A DNA stretch of 64,000 nucleotides. It comes from Candidatus Eisenbacteria bacterium RBG_16_71_46. Lineage in GTDB: Bacteria; Eisenbacteria; RBG-16-71-46. Each line of letters opens with the position of its first letter. The stretch's first letter is position 1. Shown here piece after piece: positions 4,189-56,647 of the stretch. The stretch lies in contig MFFQ01000026.1 in NCBI GenBank assembly GCA_001780165.1, positions 10,113-74,112 of the forward strand, written 5' to 3'. The position numbers were made by a program, and so were the translations under genes. Under the pieces are notes generated by a model that was not told the DNA's origin, did no database searches, and saw nothing but the letters and a program-made list of their open reading frames with translations.

Positions 4189-6243
4189 ATGTGCGGGATT
4201 GCGGGGATGCTCGATCGCGGAGGCCGCGCGGACCTCGGCCGGCTGCAGCGCATGTCCACGCTGTTGCGCCACCGCGGACCGGATGACGAGGGCATCGTGC
4301 TGCTCGACGCCCGCAGCGGCGCGTGGCTGACCCTGGGCGGGGCGGACACGCCCGCCGACGGCTACGCCAGTGCGGTGCGCTACGCCCCGGGGCGCCACGA
4401 CGGCGACATCGCGCGCGCCAGCTACGGGGTCGGGCTCGCGCACCGGCGATTGTCGATCGTGGACCTGAGCCCGTCCGGCCACCAGCCGATGAGTCGCGCC
4501 GACGGCCGCAGCTGGATCGTGTACAACGGAGAGATCTACAACCACGTCGAGCTGCGCGCCGAGCTCGAGGGGCTGGGCGAGCGATTCGTCAGCAGCAGCG
4601 ACACCGAGGTGATCCTCGCCGCGTACCGCCGTTTCGGGCGCGGCTGCCTGGCGCGGTTCAACGGCATGTTCGCCTTCGCGCTGTGGGACGGCGAGCGGCG
4701 CGAGCTGTTGTGCGCGCGCGACCGGCTGGGGATCAAGCCCTTCTACTACCAGTACGACGGCGAGCGTTTCGTCTTCGCCTCGGAGCCGCGCGCGCTGGTC
4801 CTCACCCAGCCGCGCCGCATCGCGCCGCGCCTCGAGGCGGTGCGCGATCTGGTGGCGCTCGACTGGGTGGACCACGAGGCGCACACCTTCTTCGAAGGGC
4901 TGTTCCAGCTGCCGGCGGGACACGCGCTCACCGTGGGGGAGCAGGGCTTCGCCGTCCACCGCTGGTGGGAGCTGGATCCCTCGGCCAGCGCGCCGGGCGA
5001 TCCCGAGGACTGGGACCGCGAGTTCGAGCGCCTGTTCACCGATGCCGTGCGGCTGCGGCTGCGCGCGGACGTCGAGGTCGGCTCCTGCCTGTCGGGCGGG
5101 CTGGACTCCACCGCGGTGGTGACCACCGCCGCGCGGCTGGCCACGCGGCCGCTCCACACCTTCACCTGCGCCTACGAAGAGGGTCCCGCCTTCGACGAGC
5201 GGCCTTACATGCGCGCCGCGGTCGAGGCCAGCCGCGCCGCCTCGCACGTGGTGATCCCGGACGGCGCGGACTTCTGGAGCGTCTTCGACCGGCTCGCCGA
5301 GCATCAGGCCGAGCCCACCGCCGGGCCGGGGCTCTACTCGCAGTGGAAGGTGATGGAGCTGGCGCACGAGGCCGGACTCAAGGTGCTGCTCGACGGCCAG
5401 GGCGGCGACGAGACCCTGGCCGGCTATCCCCGCTACCTGCCGCTGCGCCTGCGCGACCTGCTCGCCGGCGCGCGGCTGATCTCGTTCGCGCGCCTGTTCG
5501 GCCCGGTCGCCGCGCGACTCGGCGCCACCACCACCCTGGCACTCGCGCTGGAGCCCTGGCTGCCGCCCGCGGTCGTGGCGCCGCTGCGGCGGCGTTTCGG
5601 TCAAGGGAAGGACCGCGTGCTCTCCCCCACGCTGCGCGCGCTGGAGCGCGGTGCGTTGCCGCGGCCGCCGGGCGGCTTCCGCACCGCGGTCGCGCGACAG
5701 ATGGCGTTCGATGCCCGGCAGCGCCTGCTCCCCTCGCTGCTCCGCTACGAGGACCGCAACAGCATGGCGTTCTCGATCGAGACCCGGCTGCCGTTCCTGG
5801 ACTACCGCCTGGTCGAGTTCGCCTTCTCGCTCAGGGACGGCGTCAAGCTCGAAGGGGCGACGACCAAGGCGATCCTGCGCCGCGCACTCGGCGACCGCAT
5901 CCCGCGCGCGGTGCTCGAGCGCCAGGACAAGATGGGTTTCGAGACCCCCACCGACGTCTGGCTGCGCAGCCGCTTCGCCGGAGAGGTGCGCCGGCGATTG
6001 CTCACGCCGGGGCCGCTCCACGAGTGGCTGGATCCCAAGACGCTGGGCGCGGAGCTCGAGGACTACCTCGCCGACCGGCGCGCGATCGGGCTTCAGGTGT
6101 GGCGCTGGCTCTCGCTCGATGCCTGGGCGCGACGTTTCCTCGAACGCGACCCCCGGGTGGCCGAGCGCGCGCCCGAGATCCCCCTCCACGCGGGAAGGCA
6201 CCAGTCCTACGTCGAGGTGATGCGCGCGCTGCAGGGCGCCTAG
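4189..6243 (+). CDS. asnB: Asparagine synthase (glutamine-hydrolysing), AsnB family amidotransferase.
   Basis: The N-terminus is MCGIAG, the Ntn glutaminase motif. The central region has the PP-loop motif SGGLDS. GGAG lies 8 nt upstream of the ATG. The 3190..6243 track ORF is an N-terminally over-extended version of this gene. Confidence 0.85.
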   Translation: MCGIAGMLDRGGRADLGRLQRMSTLLRHRGPDDEGIVLLDARSGAWLTLGGADTPADGYASAVRYAPGRHDGDIARASYGVGLAHRRLSIVDLSPSGHQPMSRADGRSWIVYNGEIYNHVELRAELEGLGERFVSSSDTEVILAAYRRFGRGCLARFNGMFAFALWDGERRELLCARDRLGIKPFYYQYDGERFVFASEPRALVLTQPRRIAPRLEAVRDLVALDWVDHEAHTFFEGLFQLPAGHALTVGEQGFAVHRWWELDPSASAPGDPEDWDREFERLFTDAVRLRLRADVEVGSCLSGGLDSTAVVTTAARLATRPLHTFTCAYEEGPAFDERPYMRAAVEASRAASHVVIPDGADFWSVFDRLAEHQAEPTAGPGLYSQWKVMELAHEAGLKVLLDGQGGDETLAGYPRYLPLRLRDLLAGARLISFARLFGPVAARLGATTTLALALEPWLPPAVVAPLRRRFGQGKDRVLSPTLRALERGALPRPPGGFRTAVARQMAFDARQRLLPSLLRYEDRNSMAFSIETRLPFLDYRLVEFAFSLRDGVKLEGATTKAILRRALGDRIPRAVLERQDKMGFETPTDVWLRSRFAGEVRRRLLTPGPLHEWLDPKTLGAELEDYLADRRAIGLQVWRWLSLDAWARRFLERDPRVAERAPEIPLHAGRHQSYVEVMRALQGA

Positions 6244-6386
6244 GCTCCGTTTGAAAACGCCCGGGGGCAAGGCGTCGCGGTCGCGCGAGGACGACCGTGG
6301 CCGACCACGCTGCGCGTGGTGCCCGGCCACGTCGGAGCGAGGAGCCGACCGCGCAACGTAGCCCTCGGGCGTTTTCGAACGGAGCC
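6243..6386. repeat. Palindromic repeat element, family A, copy 1, in inverted orientation relative to copies 2 and 3.
   Basis: The terminal inverted repeats are AGGCTCCGTTTGAAAACGCCCG and its complement CGGGCGTTTTCGAACGGAGCCT. An internal hairpin reads CGTGGCCG...CGGCCACG. The conserved core GGGCAAGGCGTCGCG is shared with 40308-40454 and 56518-56647. Confidence 0.85.
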
Positions 6387-6388
6387 TC

Positions 6389-7516
6389 GTGGACCTGGTC
6401 GTCCTGTCGGAAGTGCGCTGGAGCTACTTCCGCACCCGCAAGCAGTTCCTGCTGTCGCGCTTCCCCGAGCGCTGGCGCGTCTTCTACGCCCAGCCCCCCG
6501 CGGCGGGGACGGACGACCCGTGGCGAGCGCGGCGCGAGGGGCGCGTCACCTACTTCACGGTGCCGTTTCTCAAGCCCGGCACCACCCAGCCGCTGTACAA
6601 CCGGCTGATGCGGGCCGGCGCGGCGCGCGCCACGGTCGAGCGCTGCGCCGAATCCTGGCTGCGCCTGATGCTGGCGCGGCTCGGGGTCGAGCCGCGACCG
6701 GTGGTGCTGGCGTCCAACATCTACTGCCCCGGAGCGCTTTCGCGGCTGCCCCGGAAGTTGTTATTCTACGACTTCAATGACAGCCCACTGCAGTTCGCCG
6801 GGGTGCCGGCCTGGGCCCCGGACTACTGGCGCCGCACCCGCGACCAGGTGGACGCGTTCTTCGTCGTGTCCGAGTACTACCGGCGCGAACTGAGCGCGCA
6901 GACGCGGAGGCCCGTGATCCTGCTCGGTAACGGCGTCGAGGTCGACCACTTCCAGGCCCCGCGGGCGGTTCCGCCCGAGTTGGCGTCCCTGCCGCGCCCG
7001 CTCATCGGTTACGTCGGCCTGCTCTCGCATTTCCTCGATTTCGAGACGCTCGAGGCCCTGCGCCAGGCGCGCCGCGGCGGCACGCTGGTCCTGGTCGGCC
7101 CCGGCACCCCGGCCACCGACGCCGCGGTGCGGGAGCTGGCCGGGCGCGAGGGGGTGGCGGTCCTGGGCCCCAGGCCCTATGCGGAGATCCCGGCCACCAT
7201 GCAGGCCCTGGACGTCGGGGTCATTCCTTTTCGGGCGAACGATCCCTTCGTGCAGGGTATCAATCCCAATAAGGTCTACCAGTACCTCGCCTCCGGCCTT
7301 CCCGTGGTAACCACCCCGGTGCTCGATCTCGAACCCCGCCCTCCGCACCTTCAGTTCGCCGCCGGGCCCGCCGCGATGCGGGCGGCGGTGGAGCGGGCGC
7401 TGGACGCACCGCCGGATCGCGCGGCCCGCGTGGCGCTGGCCCGCTCCCACGATTGGGGAGGGCTCGCGAGCCGGATGGTCGAGGAGATCGAGCGGCGGAT
7501 CCCCGCGGCCGGCTGA
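6389..7516 (+). CDS. Glycosyltransferase family 1/4 (TuaH-like).
   Basis: GT-B fold with GYVGLLSHFLDFE and VIPF...NPNKVYQYLASGLPVV. The GTG start is 2 nt after repeat copy 1. Confidence 0.7.
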   Translation: MDLVVLSEVRWSYFRTRKQFLLSRFPERWRVFYAQPPAAGTDDPWRARREGRVTYFTVPFLKPGTTQPLYNRLMRAGAARATVERCAESWLRLMLARLGVEPRPVVLASNIYCPGALSRLPRKLLFYDFNDSPLQFAGVPAWAPDYWRRTRDQVDAFFVVSEYYRRELSAQTRRPVILLGNGVEVDHFQAPRAVPPELASLPRPLIGYVGLLSHFLDFETLEALRQARRGGTLVLVGPGTPATDAAVRELAGREGVAVLGPRPYAEIPATMQALDVGVIPFRANDPFVQGINPNKVYQYLASGLPVVTTPVLDLEPRPPHLQFAAGPAAMRAAVERALDAPPDRAARVALARSHDWGGLASRMVEEIERRIPAAG

Positions 7517-22579: not shown

Positions 22580-24044
<1,465 letters not shown>

Positions 24045-24051
<7 letters not shown>

Positions 24052-25466
24052 TCGCCGCGAGCTCGGCCGCGCCGGCGCTGACGCTCACCCGCGTGGCGCA
24101 GCTGGTGCACGGCGACCTCGTCGTGCGCCAGGTGCCGCGCGACGCCTCCGCGCGCGAGGCCTTCCTGCGCACCGCCATCGAGGGCGCGAGCATCGACACC
24201 CGCGCGCTCGAGCCCGGCCAGCTGTTCGTGCCGTTGCGCGGCGAGCATGCGGACGGCCACGACTTCCTCGACGAGGCGTTTCGCTGCGGCGCCGCCGCGG
24301 CGCTGTGCGAGCGGTCGCGCCACGCCGCCCTGGCCGGACGCGAGCCCGGACCGCTGATCGTGGTGGAGGACGTCACCGGCGCGCTGCTCACCCTCGCTCG
24401 GCGTCACCGCGAGGGCTGGCCGGGCCTGGCGCTCGCGGTCACCGGCAGCGCGGGCAAGACCACCACCAAGGACCTGGTGGCCGCGGCCTTCGCCAGCGCG
24501 GGGCCCACGCTCAAGACCGAGGGGAATCTCAACAACCAATGGGGCGTGCCGCTCACGCTGCTGCGGCTGCGCCCGGAACATCGGGTGGCGGTGGTGGAGC
24601 TGGCGATGAACCACCCGGGCGAGATCGCCGCGCTCGCGCAGGTCGCGTTGCCCGGCGCCGCGGTGATCACCAACGCCGGCAGCGCCCACCTCGAGCACCT
24701 GGGGTCCCTGGAGGCGATCGCGCGCGAGAAGGCGTCGCTGGCCTTCGCGCTCGCGCCCGGCGCGGTGGCGTTCGCGGGCGCGGATTCGCCGCGGCTGCTC
24801 GCGGCACTCTCCGGGGCGCCGTGCCGGATCGTGACCTACGGGTTCGCGCCCGCGGCCGACGTGCGCCCGCGGCACGTGGATGACCTCGGCGCCGAGGGCA
24901 GCCGCTTCGAGGTCGAAGGTTTCCCGCCGGTGCGGCTTCAGCTGGTGGGCCGCCATCAGGTCGCGAACGCGCTGGCCGCGATCGCGGTCGCTCGCGAATA
25001 CGGCCTCGATCCCGCCGCGGTGGCGCGGGCGCTCGAGACCCACCGCCCCGGCCGCGGGCGCATGGAGGTGCGACGCGCCCGAGGCGCGACGTTGCTGGTG
25101 GACTGCTACAACTCCAATCCCGAGTCCGCGCGCGCCGCGCTCGACACCCTGGCCGCGTGGCCGCGGGCCCGCCGGCGCATCGCCGTGCTCGGCGACATGC
25201 TCGAGCTCGGGCCCGAGGCTCCCGCCCTCCATCGCGCGGTGGGGGCGGCGGTGCGCGAGGCGGAGCTGTGGGCGCTGGGCCGCCACGCGGGCGACTACGG
25301 GGCCGGTGGCCGGAGCGCGGGGGTCGAGGTGCGCGAGTTCGCGGACCTGCCGAGCCTGCGTGCCGCCGTGGCCGGGGCCCTCGAGCGCGATGTCGTCGTC
25401 CTGCTCAAGGCGTCGCGCGGCGTGGCGCTCGAGCGCGTGCTCGAGGGCCTCGAGGCGGAGGGTTAG
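24045..25466 (+). CDS. murF: UDP-N-acetylmuramoyl-tripeptide--D-alanyl-D-alanine ligase MurF.
   Basis: Mur ligase P-loop GSAGKTTTK. It follows murE and overlaps it by 7 nt. Confidence 0.85.
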
Positions 25467-25470
25467 CGGC

Positions 25471-26562
25471 GTGTTCTACGAATGGGTCTATCCGCTCCAC
25501 GAGCTGCCCGGGCTCTCGGCGCTGAACGTCTTCCGCTACATCACGTTTCGCGCCGCGTACGCCGCGATCACGGCGCTGCTGGTGTGCTTCGTCCTGGGGC
25601 CGCCGATGATCGAATGGCTCCGGCGCGTCAAGCTCGGGCAGCGGGTGCGGGCCGAGGGACCGCAGAGCCACCTCGCCAAGGCGGGCACGCCGACCATGGG
25701 AGGCGTGCTCATCCTCGCCGCCATCGTGGTGCCGACGTTGCTGTGGGGCAACCTCCACTCGCGCCCGTTGTGGCTCGCGCTGCTCGCCACCGTCTGGCTC
25801 GGCGCGATCGGCTTCCTGGACGACTATTTGCGCGTCGTCAAGGGGTTCCCCAAGGGCCTGCTCGGGCGCTACAAGCTCACCGGGCAGTTCGCCATCGGGC
25901 TCGCGATCGGGCTGATTCTCGTGCTGTGGCCCGAGCCCGGGCTGCCGGGAACGACCACCCACGTCCCGTTCCTCAAGTTCCGCTTCATCGACTTCGGCTG
26001 GTTGTTCGTTCCTTTCGTGATCCTGGTGATCACCGGCGCCTCGAACGCCGTCAACCTCACCGACGGGCTCGACGGTCTCGCCTCGGGGTTGATGGCGATC
26101 GCCGCGCTGACCTTCGCCGGGATGTGCTACCTCAGCGGCCACATCAAGATCTCCGAGTACCTCAACATCAGCTACCTCCCCTATGGCGGGGAGCTCACCG
26201 TGTTCTGCGCGGCAGTGCTCGGGGCCTCGCTCGGCTTCCTCTGGTACAACTGCCATCCGGCCGACGTGTTCATGGGCGACACCGGGTCGCTCGCGCTGGG
26301 CGGCGCGCTCGGCACCGTGGCGGTGCTGATCAAGCGCGAATTCTGGCTGGTCCTGGTGGGCGGCGTGTTCGTCGCCGAGGCGATGTCGGTGATGCTCCAG
26401 GTCGCGTCCTTCAGGCTGTGGGGCCGGCGGGTCTTCCGCATGTCGCCGCTCCACCATCACTTCGAGCTCAGGGGCTGGGCGGAGTCGCGCGTGGTGCTAC
26501 GCTTCTACATCGTTGGGGCGCTGCTCGCCCTGCTCTCGCTCTCGACCTTCAAACTCCAATGA
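25471..26562 (+). CDS. mraY: Phospho-N-acetylmuramoyl-pentapeptide transferase MraY.
   Basis: NAVNLTDGLDGLA and HHHFEL motifs with about 10 TM helices. Confidence 0.9.
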   Translation: MFYEWVYPLHELPGLSALNVFRYITFRAAYAAITALLVCFVLGPPMIEWLRRVKLGQRVRAEGPQSHLAKAGTPTMGGVLILAAIVVPTLLWGNLHSRPLWLALLATVWLGAIGFLDDYLRVVKGFPKGLLGRYKLTGQFAIGLAIGLILVLWPEPGLPGTTTHVPFLKFRFIDFGWLFVPFVILVITGASNAVNLTDGLDGLASGLMAIAALTFAGMCYLSGHIKISEYLNISYLPYGGELTVFCAAVLGASLGFLWYNCHPADVFMGDTGSLALGGALGTVAVLIKREFWLVLVGGVFVAEAMSVMLQVASFRLWGRRVFRMSPLHHHFELRGWAESRVVLRFYIVGALLALLSLSTFKLQ

Positions 26563-27953
26563 CGATCGACGCCCGCCACCCGCTTCCCGGGACCCGACCG
26601 CTGGTGGTCGGCGCAGCGCGCTCGGGCCTGGCCGCGGCACGCCTGCTGCGCGCCCACGGCCTCGCGGTGCGGGTCTGCGACGCCCGCGCCGCCGCCGAGC
26701 GGCCGGAGGCGGCGCGGGACCTCGAGGCGCTCGGGGCCGAGACGCGATGGGGGCGCGACGACCCGGCGCTGCTCGAGGGCCGCGACTTCGTGGTGTGGAG
26801 CCCGGGCATTCCGGTCGCGCACCCCACCGCCGCCGCGGCGCGGGCGGCGGGCCTCCCGCTGCTCTCCGAACTCGAGCTCGGCTTCCTCGCCGCGCACGCC
26901 CCGCTGGTGTGCGTGACCGGCACCAACGGCAAGAGCACCACGACCGACCTGGTTGGCGCCATCCTGCGCGCCGCCGGGCGCGAGGTGGAGGTGTGCGGCA
27001 ACATCGGACGCGCCTTGTGCGACGTGGCGGAGTCGGTCGGGCCGACCGGGCTGCTGGTGGTCGAGGTGTCCTCGTTCCAGCTCGAGACCGTGGACCGGCT
27101 CAAGCCCTTCGTCGCCACCTGGCTCAACCTCACGTCCGACCACCTCGATCGCCACCACGACTTCGAGACCTACGGGGCTCTCAAGCAGAAGTTGTTCGCC
27201 CGGCAGGGCGAGGGGGACTACGCGGTGCGGAACGCGGACGATCCCGAGGTCGTCCGGCGGCGCGCCGGGGCCGCGACGCCGCTCGCGTTCTCCCGCCGCG
27301 GGCCGGTGGACGAGGGCGCCTGGCTCGAGGCCGGCGAGATCGCGCTGGCGTGGCGCGGGGGTACCGAACGCGTGCTCCCGTCGCGCGAGCTGCGGCTGCG
27401 CGGCCCGCACAACCTGGCGAACGCGCTCGCGGCCCTGGCCACGACCCTGCCGCTCGAGGTCGCTCCCGAGCTGCTGCGTCGCACGCTGCGGAGCTACGCT
27501 GGCCTCGAGCACCGGCTCGAGCTGGTGGCCGTCGTGGAGGGCGTCCAGTTCGTGAACGACTCCAAGGCCACCAACGTCGGTTCGCTCGAGGTGGCGCTCG
27601 CGAGCTTCGACGATCCGGTGGTGCTCATTGCGGGGGGACGCGACAAGGGACAGGACTTCGCGCCCCTCCTCGAGACCGTGCGCCGCCGCACTCGGCTGGT
27701 GGTGCTCATCGGCGAGGGTGCGGAGCGCATCACGACCGCGTGGCCCGGGGTGCCGGTCCGTCGCGCGGCGACGCTGGCGGAGGCCGTGGATCTCGGTTTC
27801 GACGCGGCCCGCGCGCAGGTCGCGGCGGGCGGCCGCGTGGTCCTGCTCTCGCCGGGGTGCGCGTCGTTCGACATGTTCTCGGACTTCGAGGATCGCGGCC
27901 GGCGTTTCAAGGCCGAGGTCACCCGTCTGCAGACGAAGGAGGCCCACACGTGA
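26559..27953 (+). CDS. murD: UDP-N-acetylmuramoylalanine--D-glutamate ligase MurD.
   Basis: Rossmann-like N-terminal domain followed by the GTNGKSTT P-loop. ATGA overlap with mraY. Confidence 0.9.
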   Translation: MTIDARHPLPGTRPLVVGAARSGLAAARLLRAHGLAVRVCDARAAAERPEAARDLEALGAETRWGRDDPALLEGRDFVVWSPGIPVAHPTAAAARAAGLPLLSELELGFLAAHAPLVCVTGTNGKSTTTDLVGAILRAAGREVEVCGNIGRALCDVAESVGPTGLLVVEVSSFQLETVDRLKPFVATWLNLTSDHLDRHHDFETYGALKQKLFARQGEGDYAVRNADDPEVVRRRAGAATPLAFSRRGPVDEGAWLEAGEIALAWRGGTERVLPSRELRLRGPHNLANALAALATTLPLEVAPELLRRTLRSYAGLEHRLELVAVVEGVQFVNDSKATNVGSLEVALASFDDPVVLIAGGRDKGQDFAPLLETVRRRTRLVVLIGEGAERITTAWPGVPVRRAATLAEAVDLGFDAARAQVAAGGRVVLLSPGCASFDMFSDFEDRGRRFKAEVTRLQTKEAHT

Positions 27954-29086
27954 ACCGCGGCGACCGCTGGCTGCTGGTGCTGCCGCTCGCCCTCACCGCG
28001 CTGGGCGTGGTGATGGTGTACTCGTCGAGCGCGATTCTCGGCATCACGCGCTATCAGGATCCCAACTATTTCTTCGCCAAGCAGCTGTTCCGCGCCGTGC
28101 TGGGCGTGATCGTGATGCTGCTGGTGTCGCGCGTGCCGCTCCACCGCCTCGAGCGCCTGGCGCCGGCCCTGATCCTGGTCGGGGCCGGGCTGCTGGCGCT
28201 GGTCGGGGTGGCCGGGCACATGTCGAACGGCGCGACGCGCTGGCTGCGCCTCGGCATGCTCACCGTGCAGCCGACCGACGTCGGGCGGCTCACGGCGGTC
28301 GTGTTCCTCGCCTGGTGGCTCAAGCGCCGCCCGCCGGCCGAGCACGGGCTGGTGCGCGGCCTGTTTCCGCCGCTCGCCGTGGTCGGCGGGCTGGCCGGCC
28401 TGATCCTGATCCAGCCCAACCTGAGCAGCGCGACCCTGCTGGCGCTGACCGGTTTCGGAATGGTGTTCCTCGCCGGCGCCCCGCTGCGGCACCTCGCGGT
28501 GCCGCTGGGCGTGGGAGCGGTGGTGGGGGCGGTGACGCTGCGCACCCACCCCTACATGATGGAGCGGGTCGAGACCTTCGTCCGCTTCCTCGGCACCGGC
28601 ACGCTCGACAGCCGAGGCTCCGGCTGGCAGCTCGACCAATCGCTGATCGCCATCGGCTCGGGTGGCTGGTTCGGCCGCGGGCTGGGCGGCGGATTGCAGA
28701 AGTACCTGTTCCTGCCCGAGGCGCACACCGACTTCATCTTCTCGATCCTGGCCGAGGAGCTGGGGTTCGTCGGCGTGACCGCGCTGCTCGTGCTGGTGGG
28801 GCTGCTCCTGTGGCGCGGGATGCGGGCGACGGCACGCGCCGGAGGGCCGTTCGCGTTCCTGCTCGCCGGAGGGCTCACGCTCCAGATCGGTCTTTACGCG
28901 CTGGTCAACCTGGCGGTCGCCACCGGGCTCGCCCCGACCACCGGCCTGCCGCTGCCGTTCGTCTCCTACGGTGGCTCGGCGCTGCTCGCCAACATGGCCG
29001 CCGCCGGCGTGCTGTACCGCGTGAGCGCGGCCAACGACGAGCGCGAGGCGCTGGCCCGCCAGCGCTGGTCGCGGGAGACGCCATGA
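27950..29086 (+). CDS. ftsW: Peptidoglycan glycosyltransferase FtsW (SEDS family).
   Basis: SEDS signature PEAHTDFIFS...LPLPFVSYGGS. GAAGGAGG lies upstream. GTGA overlap with murD. Confidence 0.85.
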   Translation: MNRGDRWLLVLPLALTALGVVMVYSSSAILGITRYQDPNYFFAKQLFRAVLGVIVMLLVSRVPLHRLERLAPALILVGAGLLALVGVAGHMSNGATRWLRLGMLTVQPTDVGRLTAVVFLAWWLKRRPPAEHGLVRGLFPPLAVVGGLAGLILIQPNLSSATLLALTGFGMVFLAGAPLRHLAVPLGVGAVVGAVTLRTHPYMMERVETFVRFLGTGTLDSRGSGWQLDQSLIAIGSGGWFGRGLGGGLQKYLFLPEAHTDFIFSILAEELGFVGVTALLVLVGLLLWRGMRATARAGGPFAFLLAGGLTLQIGLYALVNLAVATGLAPTTGLPLPFVSYGGSALLANMAAAGVLYRVSAANDEREALARQRWSRETP

Positions 29087-30222
29087 AGGTCGTGATCGCG
29101 GGCGGTGGCACCGGCGGACATGTCTACCCCGGCATCGCGGTGGCCGAGGAGATTCGCAACACGCGTCCCTCGTGGGAGGTGCTCTTCATCGGCAGCCGTC
29201 GCGGCCTCGAGGTCCAGGCGGTGCCCGAGGCGGGCTTCCGCATCCGCTACATCCTCGCCCGCGGCTTTCCGCGCCGGGCGTGGTGGCGCTGGCCGATGGC
29301 CCTGCTCACCAACATCCTCGGGTTCGTCCAGGCAATGTGGGTGGTGGGCGCCGAGCGGCCCGACGTGGTGCTCGGCACCGGCGGCTACGTCAGCGCGCCG
29401 GTGGCGCTCGCCGCGGTGGTGCACCGCCGGCCGCTGCTGCTCCAGGAGCAGAACAGCATCCCGGGCATCGCCAATCGCTGGCTCGCCCGCATCGCCAGCG
29501 AGGTCCATCTCTCGTTCATCGAGGCCCGCACCTACTTCAAGCGCAAGGACAACCTCAAGGTGAGCGGCAACCCGGTGCGCGCCCACATCCTGAGCGGCGA
29601 CCGTGCCACCGGGCTCAAGGAGTTCGGCCTGCTCGCCGGCAAGCCCACGGTGTTCGTCTTCGGCGGCAGCCGCGGCGCCCACCGCATCAACGAGGCGGCG
29701 CTCGAGGCGATGCGCCGGCTCAAGGGCCGGGTGGATGTCCAGTTCATCCTCCAGACCGGGCGCGAGGACTTCGAGTGGGCGCGGAACCTGGTGGAGATCG
29801 AGCAGCTCCCGGCGCGGGTCATGCCATTCATCCGGCGCATCCACATGGCCTATGCCGCGGCCGATCTCGTCGTGTGTCGCTCGGGGGCGATGACCCTGGC
29901 CGAGATCGCCGCGTGCGGCACCCCGGCGATCCTCGTGCCGTATCCGTACGCCGCGCACAATCACCAGGTCGTCAATGCCGGCAATCTCGTGGACCGCGGC
30001 GCCGCGGCGATGATCCTCGACCGCGAGCTGAGCGGCGAGCGGCTGGCGCAGGAGATCGCCCACTGGCTCAGCGATCGCCAGGCCCTGAGCCGCATGTCGG
30101 CGAACTCGCGCACCTTCACCCGGCCCGACGCGGCGGGGAAGATCGTGCTCAGCCTCGAGCGCTGGTCCACCGGGCGCCCCGCGCCGCCGGTGGAACCCGA
30201 GGACGACGAGGAGTCCGGCTGA
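29083..30222 (+). CDS. murG: UDP-GlcNAc:lipid I N-acetylglucosaminyltransferase MurG.
   Basis: N-terminal GGGTGGHVYP motif. GT28 architecture. ATGA overlap with ftsW. Confidence 0.9.
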   Translation: MKVVIAGGGTGGHVYPGIAVAEEIRNTRPSWEVLFIGSRRGLEVQAVPEAGFRIRYILARGFPRRAWWRWPMALLTNILGFVQAMWVVGAERPDVVLGTGGYVSAPVALAAVVHRRPLLLQEQNSIPGIANRWLARIASEVHLSFIEARTYFKRKDNLKVSGNPVRAHILSGDRATGLKEFGLLAGKPTVFVFGGSRGAHRINEAALEAMRRLKGRVDVQFILQTGREDFEWARNLVEIEQLPARVMPFIRRIHMAYAAADLVVCRSGAMTLAEIAACGTPAILVPYPYAAHNHQVVNAGNLVDRGAAAMILDRELSGERLAQEIAHWLSDRQALSRMSANSRTFTRPDAAGKIVLSLERWSTGRPAPPVEPEDDEESG

Positions 30223-31616
30223 TGTACGGGCGCACGCACCGCATCCACTTCATCGGCGTCGGCGGCGTCGGCATGTCGGGGATCGCCGAGGTGCTGCTCA
30301 CGCTCGGCTACGAGGTCTCGGGCAGCGATCTCAAGCAGAGCGAGACCACCGACCGCCTGCTCGGGCTCGGGGGCCGCATCTTCATCGGGCACGCGGCGTC
30401 GAACGTGGAGGGGGCGCAGGTCGTGGTGCACTCGACCGCGATCCGCCCCGACAACGTCGAGCTGATCGCGGCCCGCGCCGCCGACATGACCGTCATCGGC
30501 CGCGCCGAGATGCTGGCCGAGCTCATGCGCATGAAGTACGGCATCGCGGTGGGCGGAGCGCACGGCAAGACCACGACGACCTCGATGATCGCCGCGGTGC
30601 TGGCGCGCGGCGGCCTCGATCCCACGATCGTGGTCGGGGGCCGGCTCCACGCCATCGGCTCCAACGCCCGCCTCGGCCTCGGCCCGTTCCTGGTCGCCGA
30701 GGCGGACGAGAGCGACGGCTCCTTCCTGCGGCTGTCGCCGGCGGTGGTGGTGGTCACCAACATCGACCGCGAGCACCTGGATTTCTTCTCGGGCCTCGAA
30801 GAAATCCGGCAGTCGTTCGTCTACTTCGCCAACCGCGTCCCCTTCTACGGGGTGGCGGTGCTGTGCGCCGACGACGAGCAGGTGCGCGAGATCGTGCCGC
30901 GCGTGACCAAGCGCGCGCTGCTCTACGGAACCCGGCCCGAGGCCCAGGTGCGGGGCGAGGACCTGCGGCTGTTGCCCGACGGCTCCCGCTTCCGCGTGGT
31001 CGGCTTCGGTCGCGAGCTGGGCGAGATCGAGCTGCGGGTCCCGGGTCGCCACAACGTGCTCAACGCCCTGGCCGCGGTGGCGGTGGGGCTGGAGGTCGAG
31101 GTCGGCTTCGGGCAGATCGCCGAGGCGCTGGCGACCTTTGGCGGGGTCTCGCGCCGATTCGAAACCCGCGGCGAGGTGAACGGCATACGCGTGGTGGACG
31201 ATTACGCGCACCATCCCACCGAGATCCGCGCCAGCCTCGCCGCCGCGCGCGCCGCCGGCCGCCAGGTGTTCGCGCTGTTCCAGCCTCACCGCTACAGCCG
31301 CACCGGCGCGCTGCGCGAGGAATTCGGCTTAGCCTTCGGCGACGCCGATCGGGTATGGGTGTTGGACATCTACCCGGCGGGCGAGACGCCGCTCGAGGGG
31401 GTGAGCGGGAACACCGTGGTCGAGAGCGCGCGGCGCCAGGGCGCCCGCCACGTCGAATACGCCGCCGACCCGCACCAGGCCGCCGCCGCCGCCGCCGCCG
31501 CCGCGCGCCCCGGGGACCTGGTGATCACCCTCGGCGCGGGCGACGTCGGGAAGCTGGCCGACGAGATCCTGCGCCTGCTCGCCCGCGAGCTGGGCGTGGC
31601 GGGGAGCAAGGCCTGA
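30222..31616 (+). CDS. murC: UDP-N-acetylmuramate--L-alanine ligase MurC.
   Basis: HFIGVGGVGMSG N-terminus and P-loop GAHGKTTTTS. Overlaps the murG stop by 1 nt. Confidence 0.9.
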   Translation: MYGRTHRIHFIGVGGVGMSGIAEVLLTLGYEVSGSDLKQSETTDRLLGLGGRIFIGHAASNVEGAQVVVHSTAIRPDNVELIAARAADMTVIGRAEMLAELMRMKYGIAVGGAHGKTTTTSMIAAVLARGGLDPTIVVGGRLHAIGSNARLGLGPFLVAEADESDGSFLRLSPAVVVVTNIDREHLDFFSGLEEIRQSFVYFANRVPFYGVAVLCADDEQVREIVPRVTKRALLYGTRPEAQVRGEDLRLLPDGSRFRVVGFGRELGEIELRVPGRHNVLNALAAVAVGLEVEVGFGQIAEALATFGGVSRRFETRGEVNGIRVVDDYAHHPTEIRASLAAARAAGRQVFALFQPHRYSRTGALREEFGLAFGDADRVWVLDIYPAGETPLEGVSGNTVVESARRQGARHVEYAADPHQAAAAAAAAARPGDLVITLGAGDVGKLADEILRLLARELGVAGSKA

Positions 31617-33795: not shown

Positions 33796-34959
33796 ATGTT
33801 CGAGCTGGAGATCGAGACCACCTCGTCGGCGAAGCTCAAAGTCATCGGATGCGGAGGCGCCGGCGGCAACGCCGTCAACCGCATGATCGGCGCCGGCCTG
33901 CGCGGCGTGGAGTTCATCGTCGCCAACACCGACATGCAGGCGCTCAACCAGTCGCTGGCGCCCCACCGGATCCAGATCGGGCTCAACTCCACACGCGGTC
34001 TCGGGGCGGGGGGCGATCCGTCGGTGGGCCGGCGCGCCGCCGAGGAGGACGAGCCGGGGATCAGCGATGCCCTCAACGACAGCGACATGGTCTTCATCAC
34101 GGCGGGCATGGGCGGCGGCACCGGGACCGGCTCGGCGCCGGTGGTGGCGCGGCTCGCGAAGCAGACCGGGGCGCTGACCGTGGCGGTGGTGACCAAGCCG
34201 TTCCTCTTCGAGGGCCGGCGCCGCATGCGGCAGGCCGAGGAGGGGCTCGCGGAGCTGCGCGCCGAGGTCGACACCCTGATCGTCATCCCCAACGAGCGCC
34301 TGCTGGCGGTGGTCGAACGCGGCACCGCGCTGTCGGAGGCCTTTGCCGTGTGCGACGAGGTGCTGCTCAAGGCGACCAAGGGCATCTCCGACCTGGTGAC
34401 GGTTCCCGGGCTGGTCAATCTGGACTTCGCCGACGTCAAGGCGGTGATGTCGAACCGCGGCAATGCGCTGATGGGCACCGGCCGCGCCTCGGGGCCGTCG
34501 CGCGCCGCCGAGGCGGCGCAGGCCGCGGTCTCGAGCCCGCTGCTCGAGGACGTCTCGATCGCCGGCGCCGAGGGGGTGCTGGTCAATATCACCGGCGGGC
34601 GCGACCTCACGCTGCACGAGGTCAACGAGGCCGCGGGGGTGGTGGTGAGTGCGGCGGGAGACGACGCCAACGTCATCTTCGGGGCGGTGATCGATCCCAA
34701 TCTGGACGGCGAGATGATCCTCACCGTGATCGCCACCGGATTCGGGGCCACCGAACCGCGGCTCAAGCTGCTCGATCGCACACGTGCCGCGGTCGCCGCC
34801 GCGACGCCCCGCGCCGGGGAGGACGAGGAGGACCTGCGTCACCCGCAGCCGTGGAAGCGCGGCGAGGAGAGCGCCGCGCGGCCCAATCGCTGGGGCCGCA
34901 GCGCCACGCGCGGCGAGTCGCTGGAGGTGCCGACATTCCTGCGCAAACAGATGGACTAG
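33796..34959 (+). CDS. ftsZ: Cell division GTPase FtsZ.
   Basis: Tubulin signature GGGTGTG and the NTDMQAL motif. A C-terminal variable linker is followed by a conserved tail. Confidence 0.95.
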
Positions 34960-35230
34960 GGCGCCGTCCGCACACGCCCGCGGGTCAGGCGCCGCGGGGG
35001 TCGCTTCCGTCGGGCGCGGTGCTCGACGCGCCCACCCTCCCTGGCTCCTGCGCGTCTGCGGAGCTCGCGCGGAGGTCCCCGCCCGCGGAGGCCCGCCGGG
35101 CACGGAGCACGATGCAAGCGACGCCCGCGACGCCTCGTCCGCGGGCGCTCGAGAACGGCGCCCGGAGCGTGTCGCGAGGCCGAACGCGGCGCGGTGAAAG
35201 GAGGGGGAGCTGGGCTTCTTCTCTACTCTG

Positions 35231-39498: not shown

Positions 39499-39572
39499 AA
39501 GCGGAGTTTCCACTGCGGGGGTTTTTGCGGCAGAATGCCGCCATGGGCAAGCCCGCACGCAAGCCGGACTCC

Positions 39573-40118
39573 ATGACCGTCAGCTGTCCCCACTGCTCGA
39601 GCCGCTACCTTCTGCCCGAACGGCTCATGGGGAAGGCCGGGGCGAAGGTGCGCTGCCCCCAGTGCCGCAAGGCCTTCGTGGTCAGGAGCCCGGCCCCGGC
39701 CGATGAGAAGGCCTCCGGAGCGGCGCCCATCGAAGTCCCGCCGCCGGCCGAGGCGAAAGCGGCGGTGATCGCCACCGACGTTTCGGAGCCGGCCGAGGAG
39801 CAGCCCGCGGCGCGCGAGCCCCTGGAGGCCGGGACCGCGACCCACGGCCGCGCCGCCGCCGGGCCGGAGCCCCCGCCCGGTGCGAGCCCGGCCGAGATCG
39901 CCCGCATCCTGCTCGACGATCTGAACGCGCGCTCCGGCGAGGCCATGGTCCAGGCCCTGGCGCGCGGCCATCTGTTCGCGGAATTCGGGCGGGACCTGGT
40001 GGCCGTCTTCGAGGAGTACCGCCGGCGCGCGGGCCCCGAAGCCGGCTCGGGGCCTTTCCGCGAAGCGCTCCGCGAGCGGTGGGGAGTGGACCTGAGCCCG
40101 GTGGCCGACAAGGACTAG
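39573..40118 (+). CDS. MJ0042-type zinc-ribbon domain protein with a Pro/Ala-rich linker.
   Basis: N-terminal CPHC-x14-CPQC zinc ribbon (MTVSCPHCSSRYLLPERLMGKAGAKVRCPQCRKAFVV), then a low-complexity linker and a C-terminal helical region. ATGs at 39495 and 39543 are alternative upstream starts. Confidence 0.55.
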   Translation: MTVSCPHCSSRYLLPERLMGKAGAKVRCPQCRKAFVVRSPAPADEKASGAAPIEVPPPAEAKAAVIATDVSEPAEEQPAAREPLEAGTATHGRAAAGPEPPPGASPAEIARILLDDLNARSGEAMVQALARGHLFAEFGRDLVAVFEEYRRRAGPEAGSGPFREALRERWGVDLSPVADKD

Positions 40119-40307
40119 CCTGGACTATTCAGTGCGCCGCCTGCGACCGCGATCTGCGCGCCATCCGCGGCGTCGTTCCACCGGCCGCTTCCTCGACGTG
40201 AGCGACACGGGACCCGCTTCGCGGGTGCCCCTCGCGGCCGGTGGAACTCCTTGCGGCTGTCGCGCATCTCGCGGTCTCGGCTGGCGGTTCATGAATAGTC
40301 CAGGCTA
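40116..40307. repeat. MITE-like palindromic element B (192 bp) with perfect 16-bp terminal inverted repeats.
   Basis: The left end is TAGCCTGGACTATTCA and the right end is its exact reverse complement TGAATAGTCCAGGCTA. The interior is itself a long imperfect palindrome. Its first three nt, TAG, form the stop codon of the zinc-ribbon gene. Confidence 0.75.
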
Positions 40308-40454
40308 GGCTCCGTCCGCAAACGCCCGCGGGCTGCGTTGCGCGGGCGGCTCTTCGCTCCGACGTGGCCGGGCACCGCGCGCAGCGTGGTCGGCCACGAC
40401 TCCGCTCCTCGCTCGACCGCGACGCCTTGCCCTCGGGCGTTTGCGAACGGGGCC
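40308..40454. repeat. Palindromic repeat element, family A, copy 2.
   Basis: GGCTCCGTCCGCAAACGCCC...GGGCGTTTGCGAACGGGGCC. The core matches copy 3 and the reverse complement of copy 1. It directly abuts element B. Confidence 0.85.
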
Positions 40455-40487
40455 TCTACCGCTGCCGCGCCCGCTGCCGGCGGGCGC

Positions 40488-41126
40488 CTACTTGAGCAGC
40501 TTGAAGGCGTGCCCCCACTCGTTGCGCAGGAGGCCCGGGATGCACCACAGCATGCACAGCGGCTCGATCGCACGGGCGGCCTGGACGCGGCCCATGTCCG
40601 CGGTTTCCCAGCCGAACTGATCGAGAACGCCGCTCACGGTCTGCTTGGCCTGCTCGTCGTCGCCGCAGATGAACATGGTGGGCTTGCCGCCCGGGTACTG
40701 CGGGTGGACCATGCGCGCGTTGCCGACGGAATTGAACGCCTTGACGAAGCGCGCGTCGCGGAACTCGCGCTGGAACCGCTCCATGAGCGATTCGTCGAGG
40801 CTGGTGAAGAATTTCAGCACGCCATGGGTGGGCGGTGCGTCCGCGATCGGGTTGGTCGCGTCGATCACCGGCTTGCCCGCGAGGTTCGACGTCCCCGCGG
40901 CGCGCAGGGCGTCGGCCGCCACCGAGCCCTTGACGGCGAGCACGATCAGCTCGCCGAAGCCCGCCGCGCCGGCGAAGCTGCCGGTGCGGCCCTTGGGATT
41001 CTGGGCCGCCCACTCCGCCAGCTTGGCGGGCGTCCGCGTCCCGAGCATCACCTCGTGGCCGTGTTGAAGAAAGCCGCCGGCCAGCGCCTTGGCCACGTCA
41101 CCCGATCCGAGAATTCCGACCTTCAT
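40488..41126 (-). CDS. NADPH-dependent F420 reductase-like NAD(P)-binding oxidoreductase (NpdG family).
   Basis: The N-terminus MKVGILGSGDVAKALAGGF is a Rossmann GxGxxG motif. Length 212 aa. GGGGGAG lies upstream. The track ORF 40488..41414 is over-extended. Confidence 0.65.
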   Translation of the reverse strand: MKVGILGSGDVAKALAGGFLQHGHEVMLGTRTPAKLAEWAAQNPKGRTGSFAGAAGFGELIVLAVKGSVAADALRAAGTSNLAGKPVIDATNPIADAPPTHGVLKFFTSLDESLMERFQREFRDARFVKAFNSVGNARMVHPQYPGGKPTMFICGDDEQAKQTVSGVLDQFGWETADMGRVQAARAIEPLCMLWCIPGLLRNEWGHAFKLLK

Positions 41127-55970: not shown

Positions 55971-56062
55971 CGCTTATCGCGCGATTTGACCAAAGCTTGA
56001 AACCCGCGGCGGCGGTCATCGTTCCGGTTGACTTCGGAGGCGCGGGTTCCTACCTTCATCCC

Positions 56063-56518
56063 ATGCGCCACTCGACTCTGCTCGCGGCACCCGTCCTGAT
56101 GATCGCCCTCGCGCTGCTCGCGGGACCCACGGCGGCGCAGTCGCCGCTCGGCATGCCCGCGCTCGGCGCGTACTCGCCCAGAGTCCCGGTGACCGGACTC
56201 GGCCTCGCGAGTTGGTTCGACCCCTCGCGCCTCCATCTGTCCACGTCGGTGAGCGTGGGCACGGGCTTCGGCGGCGGCGCCCAGGGGCTGCAGGTCACCA
56301 GCCTGAACTACCAGTTCCGCGCGCCGATGACGATGAGCGTGAGTCTCGGCAACGCCCTCGGCGGCCCCGCCGGCGCCCGTGGCTCCTCGATCTTCCTCGA
56401 GGGCCTGCGCATGGCCTACCAGCCGAGCCCGTCGATGCTCTTCCAGATCCGCTACCAGGATCTCCGCTCGCCGCTGCAGTACCAGTCCTCACCGTACGAT
56501 CCCTTCCGGTTCCACTAG
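56063..56518 (+). CDS. Small secreted protein with a signal peptide (hypothetical).
   Basis: MRHSTLLAAPVLMIALALLAGPTAAQSP looks like a Sec signal peptide with an AXA site. A promoter-like TTGACT-17-TACCTT lies upstream. Confidence 0.45.
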   Translation: MRHSTLLAAPVLMIALALLAGPTAAQSPLGMPALGAYSPRVPVTGLGLASWFDPSRLHLSTSVSVGTGFGGGAQGLQVTSLNYQFRAPMTMSVSLGNALGGPAGARGSSIFLEGLRMAYQPSPSMLFQIRYQDLRSPLQYQSSPYDPFRFH

Positions 56519-56647
56519 TCTCTGTCTGGAAAGGCCCGAATGGCTGCGTTGCGCGGTCGGCTCCTCGCTCCAACGTGGCCAGAAGGCCACGATTCCGCTC
56601 GTCGCTCGACCGCGACGCCTTGCCCTCGGGCGTTTCCAGACAGAGCC
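56518..56647. repeat. Palindromic repeat element, family A, copy 3.
   Basis: AGTCTCTGTCTGGAAAGGCCC...GGGCGTTTCCAGACAGAGCCT. It has the shared core and a shorter internal hairpin (CGTGGCCagaaGGCCACG). It lies between the secreted-protein stop codon and the trpA start. Confidence 0.85.

Follow-up and report, generated by a model that had tools for sequence, protein, structure and literature searches.

A 64,000-nucleotide stretch of the Candidatus Eisenbacteria bacterium RBG_16_71_46 genome (contig MFFQ01000026.1; GC content 72.8%), which we refer to as the window, contains a 186-bp palindromic element, element B, at positions 40119–40304. We conclude, with a probability of about 0.88, that element B is a non-autonomous transposon, or miniature inverted-repeat transposable element (MITE), of the IS1380 family. 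Its ends, its fold and the existence of copies elsewhere that are 91–100% identical point to a non-coding foldback MITE with IS1380-type ends, present here on the + strand as a long-apex variant. Element B lies between two convergent genes, one encoding a Zn-ribbon protein on the + strand and the other an F420_oxidored-family protein on the − strand (40488–41126), and it adjoins a second palindromic element, family A copy 2 (40309–40453, + strand). The original prediction, made from the sequence alone, had described this convergent intergenic setting and had interpreted the element as a MITE, mobilized in trans, that stands in tandem with another palindrome. Both proposals agree with our results: element B is multi-copy, it has a 4-bp duplication, and IS1380 transposases are encoded behind the same ends. 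Mobilization in trans presumably took place within this organism as well. We regard element B as a real but fairly ordinary mobile element.

The boundaries of the element follow from the sequences at its ends. A 16-mer, TAGCCTGGACTATTCA, occupies 40116–40131 and its exact reverse complement 40292–40307; these are the only matches in the window even with up to three mismatches allowed (chance expectation 0.02; none of 100 shuffles contained two matches). They had been taken as perfect 16-bp terminal inverted repeats enclosing a 192-bp element at 40116–40307. The exact 16-mer match and the palindrome stand, but the outer three nucleotides of each 16-mer are part of a 4-bp direct repeat, CTAG, at 40115–40118 and 40305–40308. 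Because CTAG is its own reverse complement, it makes the inverted repeat seem longer than it is. The element itself ends in perfect 13-mers at 40119–40131 (left, + strand, CCTGGACTATTCA) and 40292–40304 (right, − strand, matching the left end and reading TGAATAGTCCAGG on the + strand). The terminal inverted repeats therefore consist of 13 nucleotides plus a palindromic 4-bp duplication, the element proper spans 186 bp, and the outer TAG and CTA belong to the duplication.

Over the full 192 nucleotides, one long hairpin is predicted on each strand (−130.1 and −132.8 kcal/mol; z = −10.8 and −11.5), and none of 200 shuffled sequences was as stable. An inner 14-bp perfect repeat (GTTCCACCGGCCGC/GCGGCCGGTGGAAC) is found in element B, in keeping with the near full-length palindromic interior with inner repeats that had been proposed. 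The absence of a coding frame, claimed earlier as well, was also borne out, as only chance open reading frames (ORFs) of 50–58 amino acids overlap the element in sequence of 73% GC.

To place these ends in a wider context, we scanned one genome per prokaryotic species (596 Gb) for the 16-mer and obtained at least 117 loci. Chance occurrences of a 16-mer are expected in 596 Gb, and some single matches, three orthologous Veillonella sites among them, appear to be of this kind. Among the matches listed, to which the cross-genome counts below refer, most extend as CCTGGACTATTCAYRA and recur many times within the same metagenome-assembled genomes (MAGs), and a second inverted end usually lies 90–300 bp away, mostly 160–195 bp. 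Because of this extended end, the recurrence within MAGs and the paired inverted end, most of the matches are not due to chance. Paired elements vary in length from 41 to 399 bp. Their hosts include Acidobacteriota (Aminicenantes and Thermoanaerobaculia), Planctomycetota, Gamma- and Zetaproteobacteria, Nitrospirota, Binatota, Deferrimicrobiaceae, other Eisenbacteria and Chloroflexota.

The flanks of these paired elements identify the target-site duplication. Identical 4-bp flanks outside CCTGG...CCAGG are present in 41 of the 65 two-ended elements, and in 32 of them the flank is CTAG, as it is on both sides of element B, so that a search for target-site duplications, suggested with the original prediction, gave a clear result. 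The remaining identical flanks are CTAA/CTAA and TTAG/TTAG (three elements each), ATAG, CTAT and CTAC, and they are direct rather than inverted repeats. Because these non-palindromic flanks repeat directly, the four bases constitute a target-site duplication that lies outside the inverted repeat. The same observation bears on the original prediction's leading guess, an IS630/Tc1-mariner-type MITE that duplicated TA within CTAG and had 14-nt ends, GCCTGG...CCAGGC. The window junctions, C-TA-GCCTGG ... CCAGGC-TA-G, do fit the classic IS630 pattern of CTAG with a TA duplication. However, a TA duplication with an extra repeat base would make the non-CTAG flanks inverted, and TTAG/TTAG, CTAA/CTAA, ATAG/ATAG, CTAT/CTAT and CTAC/CTAC are all direct, which excludes a TA duplication of the IS630 type. 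As the transposases of the full-length elements sharing these ends belong to the IS1380 family (see below), we consider an IS630 origin very unlikely.

Two full-length insertion sequences with these ends are among the matches, and each encodes a transposase of ~460 amino acids. The first (L092), from a Planctomycetota MAG, is 1677 bp long and is flanked by the duplication CTAA on the + strand of its locus (TTAG on the strand bearing the left end CCTGGACTATTCA); it is present in four or more copies, with three further copies at 99.7% protein identity or more. The second (L114), 1708 bp long and flanked by CTAG, is in the complete genome of a cultured strain, Saltatorellus ferox Poly30. Both transposases match the NCBIfam model NF033539, 'IS1380 family transposase' (356 and 339 bits for L092 and L114, respectively; cut-off of 180), and Pfam PF13701 (E = 6e-119 and 5e-115). 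The two proteins are 51% identical, and the ends of their elements are nearly the same. Members of the IS1380 family have ends that start with CC, a duplication of 4–5 bp and a full length of about 1.55–2.0 kb; the two elements share these features, with ends CCTGG.../...CCAGG, a 4-bp duplication and lengths of 1677 and 1708 bp. A described member, IS1247, measures 1672 bp with inverted repeats of 16/13 and a direct repeat of 5 (PMC3281130). Like IS1380, IS1247, ISEcp1 and ISPme1, element B has ends that begin with CC and a short duplication within 4–5 bp; unlike IS1380-family insertion sequences, it has no transposase and is only 186 bp long. The IS1380 subgroup to which it belongs uses a 4-bp duplication at NTAG or CTAG.

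The search for a transposase whose ends match the terminal repeat thus succeeded, with both carriers in other phyla, but the enzyme is not of the IS630/Tc1-mariner, IS200/IS605 or IS110-like types that had been anticipated. The identity of the partner also weighs on a further interpretation, in which element B is a palindrome resembling repetitive extragenic palindromic (REP) sequences and bacterial interspersed mosaic elements (BIMEs), or of IS200/IS605 type, moved or maintained by a Y1 enzyme (RAYT/TnpA) acting on hairpin single-stranded DNA. Element B is indeed palindromic, intergenic and multi-copy, and it stands in tandem with another palindrome, as in BIMEs. However, the partner enzyme is a DDE transposase, and element B, at 186 bp against 20–40 nucleotides for REPs, is bounded by clear inverted repeats and a 4-bp duplication, neither of which REPs or IS200/605 derivatives are known to have. 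We therefore give this interpretation a very small probability, slightly below that of an IS630 origin.

We propose that an IS1380-family DDE transposase, supplied in trans, would recognize the 13-nt ends CCTGGACTATTCA and insert the element into NTAG, usually CTAG, with duplication of the four bases. Because S. ferox Poly30 is a cultured host of a full-length element, the specificity for these ends and for NTAG is directly testable there.

A metagenome scan with a motif combining the end and the subterminal sequence yielded 17 loci, which correspond to 10 or more distinct loci after merging overlapping contigs. Copies of element B that are 91–100% identical are present at at least 10 loci in Ga0154739 and Ga0326597 contigs, with unrelated flanks, such that these loci share with the window only the element itself. 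CTAG flanks most of the copies; several are at contig ends, and one (in L135) is truncated. The Ga0326597 sample also contains the window's own locus (L002/L141). We provisionally treat the contigs as the window's species because two of them (L129/L136) are 99.4% identical over 10.8 kb and because family A is present in Ga0154739 (L135 and L140).

These copies answer the call for a search for further copies that had accompanied the MITE proposal: element B is not unique but occurs at 10 or more loci. The combination of a unique element, no target-site duplication and no transposase partner, named at the time as grounds for abandoning that proposal, is not what we found, as the element is multi-copy, has a 4-bp duplication and shares its ends with IS1380 transposase-encoding elements. 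The reading offered for such a case was a non-mobile, single-copy structured terminator or non-coding RNA gene specific to this locus. A very stable hairpin between two convergent genes, with only one copy in the window, would suit it. Near-identical copies at 10 or more unrelated loci, the 4-bp direct repeats flanking copies and ends shared with transposase-encoding insertion sequences do not, and neither do the lack of an Rfam match at E up to 1, of a U-tract terminator or promoter consensus and of an orientation bias. As a sole explanation it is refuted by the multi-copy distribution and the target-site duplications, and we accord it next to no probability.

A sister strain (L001/L002), whose flanks at this locus are 99.3% identical to those of the window, also carries element B, with a different apex variant. 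The window's long-apex form (40119–40304) is 13 nucleotides longer than the short-apex form of the sister strain (L001 10823–10995 and L141 3655–3827), and there are three substitutions between the two in the right arm. The short-apex form (L001/L141) matches the canonical ~175-nt form of the element, and the long-apex form dominates in Ga0154739; the window's long-apex form is a derived variant. The presence of differing apex variants at one locus suggests exchange between copies or re-insertion. Given an apex replacement and three substitutions despite flanks that are 99.3% identical, exchange between copies would be the likeliest explanation.

Several observations weigh against assigning element B to IS1380 as a simple MITE. 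A tblastn search with both IS1380 transposases gave no hit in the 64-kb window, nor in any of the Eisenbacteria loci among all those fetched, and the full-length partners L092 and L114 are in other phyla rather than in the Eisenbacteria loci examined. The subterminal sequences of L092 and L114 are unlike the MITE interior, and thus neither is the direct parent of element B. No empty site was recovered, the sole other strain found at this locus being one that carries element B: the Zn-ribbon protein has one close relative, in that same sister strain, and its more distant homologs are at most 43% identical, while beyond an identical protein the next best matches to the F420 reductase are at most 84% identical and come from other lineages. 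Finally, conservation across phyla extends to the interior of the canonical ~175-nt form, where compensatory changes are seen, and a purely selfish deletion derivative would not obviously need this.

To examine this interior, we aligned 21 elements from Eisenbacteria, Acidobacteriota, Thermoanaerobaculia, Pseudomonadota, Binatota and Nitrospirota. Homology reaches well past the ends, and conserved blocks occupy fixed places in the ~175-nt unit: CTACTRCG, CTCGACGT, the apex hairpin, ACGCCTGCG and CTCGCTACG. Many of the elements fold as a single end-to-end hairpin, and 14 of 31 predicted pairs show two-sided changes that keep the pairing. Compensatory change of this kind is not in itself evidence of RNA function, as concerted evolution of the arms of a palindrome could also produce it. 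Rfam searches of the window and of 18 related loci at gathering thresholds gave no match, nor did a search of 40000–40600 at E up to 1, and a consensus scan of 39800–40800 found no promoter or terminator, including no U-tract terminator. Together with the absence of an orientation bias (see below), the lack of an Rfam match and of a consensus terminator argues against a strand-specific RNA role.

The conservation nevertheless raises the question of a function beyond transposition. Because the 13–16-nt ends and the asymmetric interior motifs are kept in at least five phyla, stems show compensatory changes and docking at TAG is exact, the canonical ~175-nt form might conceivably carry a function of its own, either as a binding platform for a transposase or host factor or, once transcribed, as a hairpin that influences the 3′ ends of the genes at which it docks, although we think this improbable. 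If it did, docking at stop codons would be an evolved safe-harbor strategy rather than a by-product of target choice. A related proposal is that element B is a MITE by origin that was later co-opted, with gene-end hairpins serving as 3′-end barriers, terminators or mRNA stabilizers and the interior kept for a host function or an element-encoded RNA. The exact placement at stop codons speaks for it, as do the compensatory stem changes and the conservation of CTACTRCG, of the CTCGACGT–apex–ACGCCTGCG segment and of CTCGCTACG in Acidobacteriota, Pseudomonadota, Binatota, Nitrospirota and Eisenbacteria, and ERIC and Correia elements set a precedent, since they are known to affect mRNA stability. 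Conversely, target choice combined with the loss of disruptive insertions through selection accounts for the exact stop placement, the compensatory changes may reflect concerted evolution of the arms without RNA function, no gene reads toward about half of the element ends, and there is neither an orientation bias toward the adjacent gene nor a terminator U-tract. We hold co-option to be unlikely on balance, if better placed than the other alternatives considered here. Both hairpins at the present locus may affect the 3′ ends of the convergent transcripts.

The TAG of the left CTAG copy (40115–40118) is the stop codon of the Zn-ribbon gene (40116–40118); the original prediction had already recognized that the element's leading TAG ends this gene, for which we find a PF13717 match. 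We asked how general such docking is using loci with a GC content of at least 0.6 among those listed, defining the upstream coding frame as one with at least 80 open codons and the highest GC content at third codon positions. Half of the element ends (40 of 80) face such a gene, and in 39 of these 40 the gene terminates with the duplicated TAG. A cruder control based on open-frame lengths in three frames was uninformative, as alternative frames stay open in GC-rich genes. Docking at stop codons can be attributed to three factors: the target is NTAG, CTAG is scarce in GC-rich DNA, and disruptive insertions are selected against. The gene is left untouched because the duplication restores its stop codon. 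With respect to the adjacent gene, elements lie 11 times in one orientation and 6 times in the other, without a clear bias, which fits a palindromic target.

The scarcity of the target is evident in the window, where CTAG occurs at 10 sites (4171, 6240, 33700, 34956, 40115, 40305, 46601, 56515, 60337 and 61021); base composition would predict 156 sites and a Markov estimate 43. Five of the 10 adjoin an A or B element. Stop codons make up most of the few CTAG sites at which GC-rich genomes tolerate insertion, which brings these MITEs to lie precisely at the ends of genes without harm to them.

The lack of any spacer between element B and family A copy 2, noted in the original prediction, is confirmed in the sequence: the right CTAG copy (40305–40308) is at the same time the left flank of family A copy 2. 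This 145-bp palindromic element has the ends GCTCCGTCCGCAAACGCCCG / CGGGCGTTTGCGAACGGGGC and forms a long hairpin (−101.3 kcal/mol, z = −7.1) directly after element B. It is followed by CTCT (40454–40457), which we read as a putative decayed CTAG. Three other family A copies are present in the window, each directly following the TAG stop of an ORF. Copy 1 (6244–6385, − strand, opposite to copy 2) lies between the stop TAG of an asparagine synthase gene, asnB (6241–6243; CTAG 6240–6243), and the GTG start of a glycosyltransferase gene at 6389. Copy 3 (56519–56646, + strand) directly follows the TAG stop of ORF 55997–56518 (CTAG 56515–56518), upstream of trpA. The third is a divergent, family A-like palindrome of ~203 bp (34960–35162, + strand; fold z = −3.8) that directly follows the ftsZ stop (CTAG 34956–34959) and precedes a TPR-protein gene; this fourth palindrome (34956–35162) was apparently missing from the earlier list of family A copies. 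Pfam supports asnB and ftsZ, and ORF 55997–56518 has no Pfam match.

The arrangement of a gene's TAG followed by family A is thus found at 6240, 34956 and 56515, and also in L140 and L143. Subtracting element B and one CTAG from the present locus leaves GAC-TAG/GCTCCG..., the same architecture as at the other family A copies. In the simplest history, an older family A element would already have been located at the CTAG containing the Zn-ribbon TAG stop, and element B would later have landed in the same CTAG, the left copy of which still provides the stop codon. The right CTAG (40305–40308) would be the original stop-codon CTAG from before the insertion of element B, now common to both elements, hence the lack of a spacer; the predicted empty-site junction is GCCGACAAGGACTAGGCTCCGTCCGC. 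We infer the order of insertion, A first and then B, from this arrangement.

Family A appears to use the same target. Its ends are GCTSYGTCTGAAAACGYCC, with GCTCCGTTTGAAAACGCC in the window and GCTGTGTCTGAAAACGTCC in L143. It is flanked by CTAG on both sides in L135 and by GTAG/ATAG in L143, whereas the four window copies and the copy in L140 have CTAG on the stop-codon side only, with far flanks of CTCG, CTCT, CTGA, CGGA and CCAT. As judged from these sequences, the stop-codon flank is kept, and the far flank has usually drifted. MITEPsy1 of Pseudomonas syringae, a non-coding element of 100 nt derived from the IS5-family ISPsy2, takes CTAG or YTAA as its insertion site, with a 4-nt duplication (PMC3189936). 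Its end, GGAAGGTCTGAAAAAGCC, resembles the family A ends in L143 (GCTGTGTCTGAAAACGTCC) and in the window (GCTCCGTTTGAAAACGCC); end resemblance and CTAG flanks suggest that family A may be an IS5-type MITE using CTAG. No partner insertion sequence came to light for family A, the genome and metagenome scans having been aimed at element B. Like MITEPsy1, element B is small and non-coding, with terminal inverted repeats and a 4-nt duplication at CTAG; unlike in MITEPsy1, its ends and partner transposase belong to IS1380 rather than IS5.

Composite arrangements recur elsewhere. In L135, the truncated copy of B adjoins the family A element that has CTAG on both sides. In L143 (13680–13800), a stop TAG is followed by a mini family A element of 52 bp between GTAG and ATAG, then by a degenerate remnant of B, CTAG and a fresh B that runs to the contig end. 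In an Aminicenantes MAG (L088 1084–1381), a 253-bp element is followed by a 41-bp mini-element consisting mostly of two ends, with TTAG flanks and a middle TTAG common to both. Another CTAG-flanked palindromic family, with ends GAGTCTGCGC..., lies directly against the MITE or full insertion sequence in an Acidobacteriota MAG and in S. ferox.

Spacer-free abutment arises because both families are located at CTAG and each insertion recreates this site at its borders, where a later one can land. Most other copies of B do not adjoin family A. The earlier suggestion of a preferred landing site beside family A is therefore correct to the extent that the site is the CTAG flanking family A, but the alternative that family A hairpins are themselves the target does not hold: the preferred landing site is the regenerated tetranucleotide and not the neighbor's hairpin. 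REP-targeting elements such as IS1397 and ISKpn1 also land beside or inside other repeats, forming composite clusters. Element B likewise adjoins another repeat in such a cluster; unlike for IS1397 and ISKpn1, the adjacency is explained by a common, self-renewed 4-bp target and not by recognition of a repeat hairpin. More generally, palindromic repeats would pile up without spacers wherever a common short palindromic target is recreated at the borders and the next insertion lands there.

Other foldback repeats offer a useful comparison. Correia/NEMIS elements of Neisseria and ERIC/IRU elements of enterobacteria are intergenic foldback repeats of 100–160 bp with inverted ends and length variants, and they are co-transcribed with their neighbors. 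Element B is likewise foldback and intergenic, with inverted ends and length variants. However, Correia elements produce a TA duplication, and no autonomous partner of theirs is known, whereas element B duplicates 4 bp and has an IS1380 partner elsewhere; moreover, neither Correia nor ERIC elements are known to be tied to CTAG stop codons or to IS1380, or to span many phyla. The literature that we searched, which did not cover ISfinder and is no proof of absence, contained no IS1380-derived MITE and no paper with this terminal sequence. Within that literature, an IS1380-derived MITE is apparently new; in its way of working, element B resembles the classical bacterial MITEs already known. The points of interest are the conservation of ends and interior across phyla, the exact placement at stop codons and a self-renewing target that builds tandem arrays. 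A repeat in the uncultured phylum Candidatus Eisenbacteria gains a name and a mechanism, and in Acidobacteriota, Planctomycetota, Pseudomonadota, Nitrospirota and further phyla, hundreds of elements that lack annotation bear these ends. Recognizing them should aid genome annotation and MAG assembly, as copies often end contigs.

The Zn-ribbon gene itself (39573–40118, + strand) is named hypothetical protein A2W00_13120 and matches Pfam PF13717 (Zn_ribbon_4, E = 3e-11); its start is uncertain and may be at 39543, 39573 or farther upstream. The alignment of the window with the sister strain breaks at window ~39802–39819, at an indel in the low-complexity, Pro/Ala-rich middle of this gene, and the Zn-ribbon proteins of the two strains are 91% identical compared to ~99.3% for the surrounding DNA. 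The convergent gene on the other side encodes an NADPH-dependent F420 reductase-like protein (F420_oxidored, PF03807). Elsewhere in the window, the direct-repeat families D1 and D3 (22883–30602) are not mobile repeats and represent a conserved ATP-binding motif (GGCAAGACCAC...), probably carried by putative paralogous Mur ligase genes of a cell-division cluster.

Some candidate matches outside the window were set aside. Six single 16-mer matches in viral contigs were taken as chance, and a distant-mode BLAST search of PLSDB plasmids with element B and family A returned short chance matches only. A second 13-mer resembling the terminal repeat in L130/L127 (CCTGGACTATTTCG), 1653 bp from a real element end, was likewise attributed to chance, with no transposase in between.

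A third CTAG-flanked palindromic family, with ends GAGTCTGCGCGGCAGAAAC and lengths of ~50 to 313 bp, is found in an Acidobacteriota MAG and in S. ferox (L077 5405–5454, L087 7258–7305, L022 4080–4392, L034 901–1171, L042 2307–2577, L089 460–748 and L114 3459–3617), where it repeatedly abuts an IS1380-type MITE or a full insertion sequence. In the Acidobacteriota MAG MFD05684.bin.1.267 (L022, L034, L042, L074, L082 and L089), the elements have a GC content of 56–60% compared to 68–72% for their loci, which may reflect recent arrival or a constraint on composition. A 174-bp element with these ends and 34% GC (L094 3259–3432) is on a contig binned as a Thermoplasmatota archaeon, representing either a cross-domain occurrence or a binning error.

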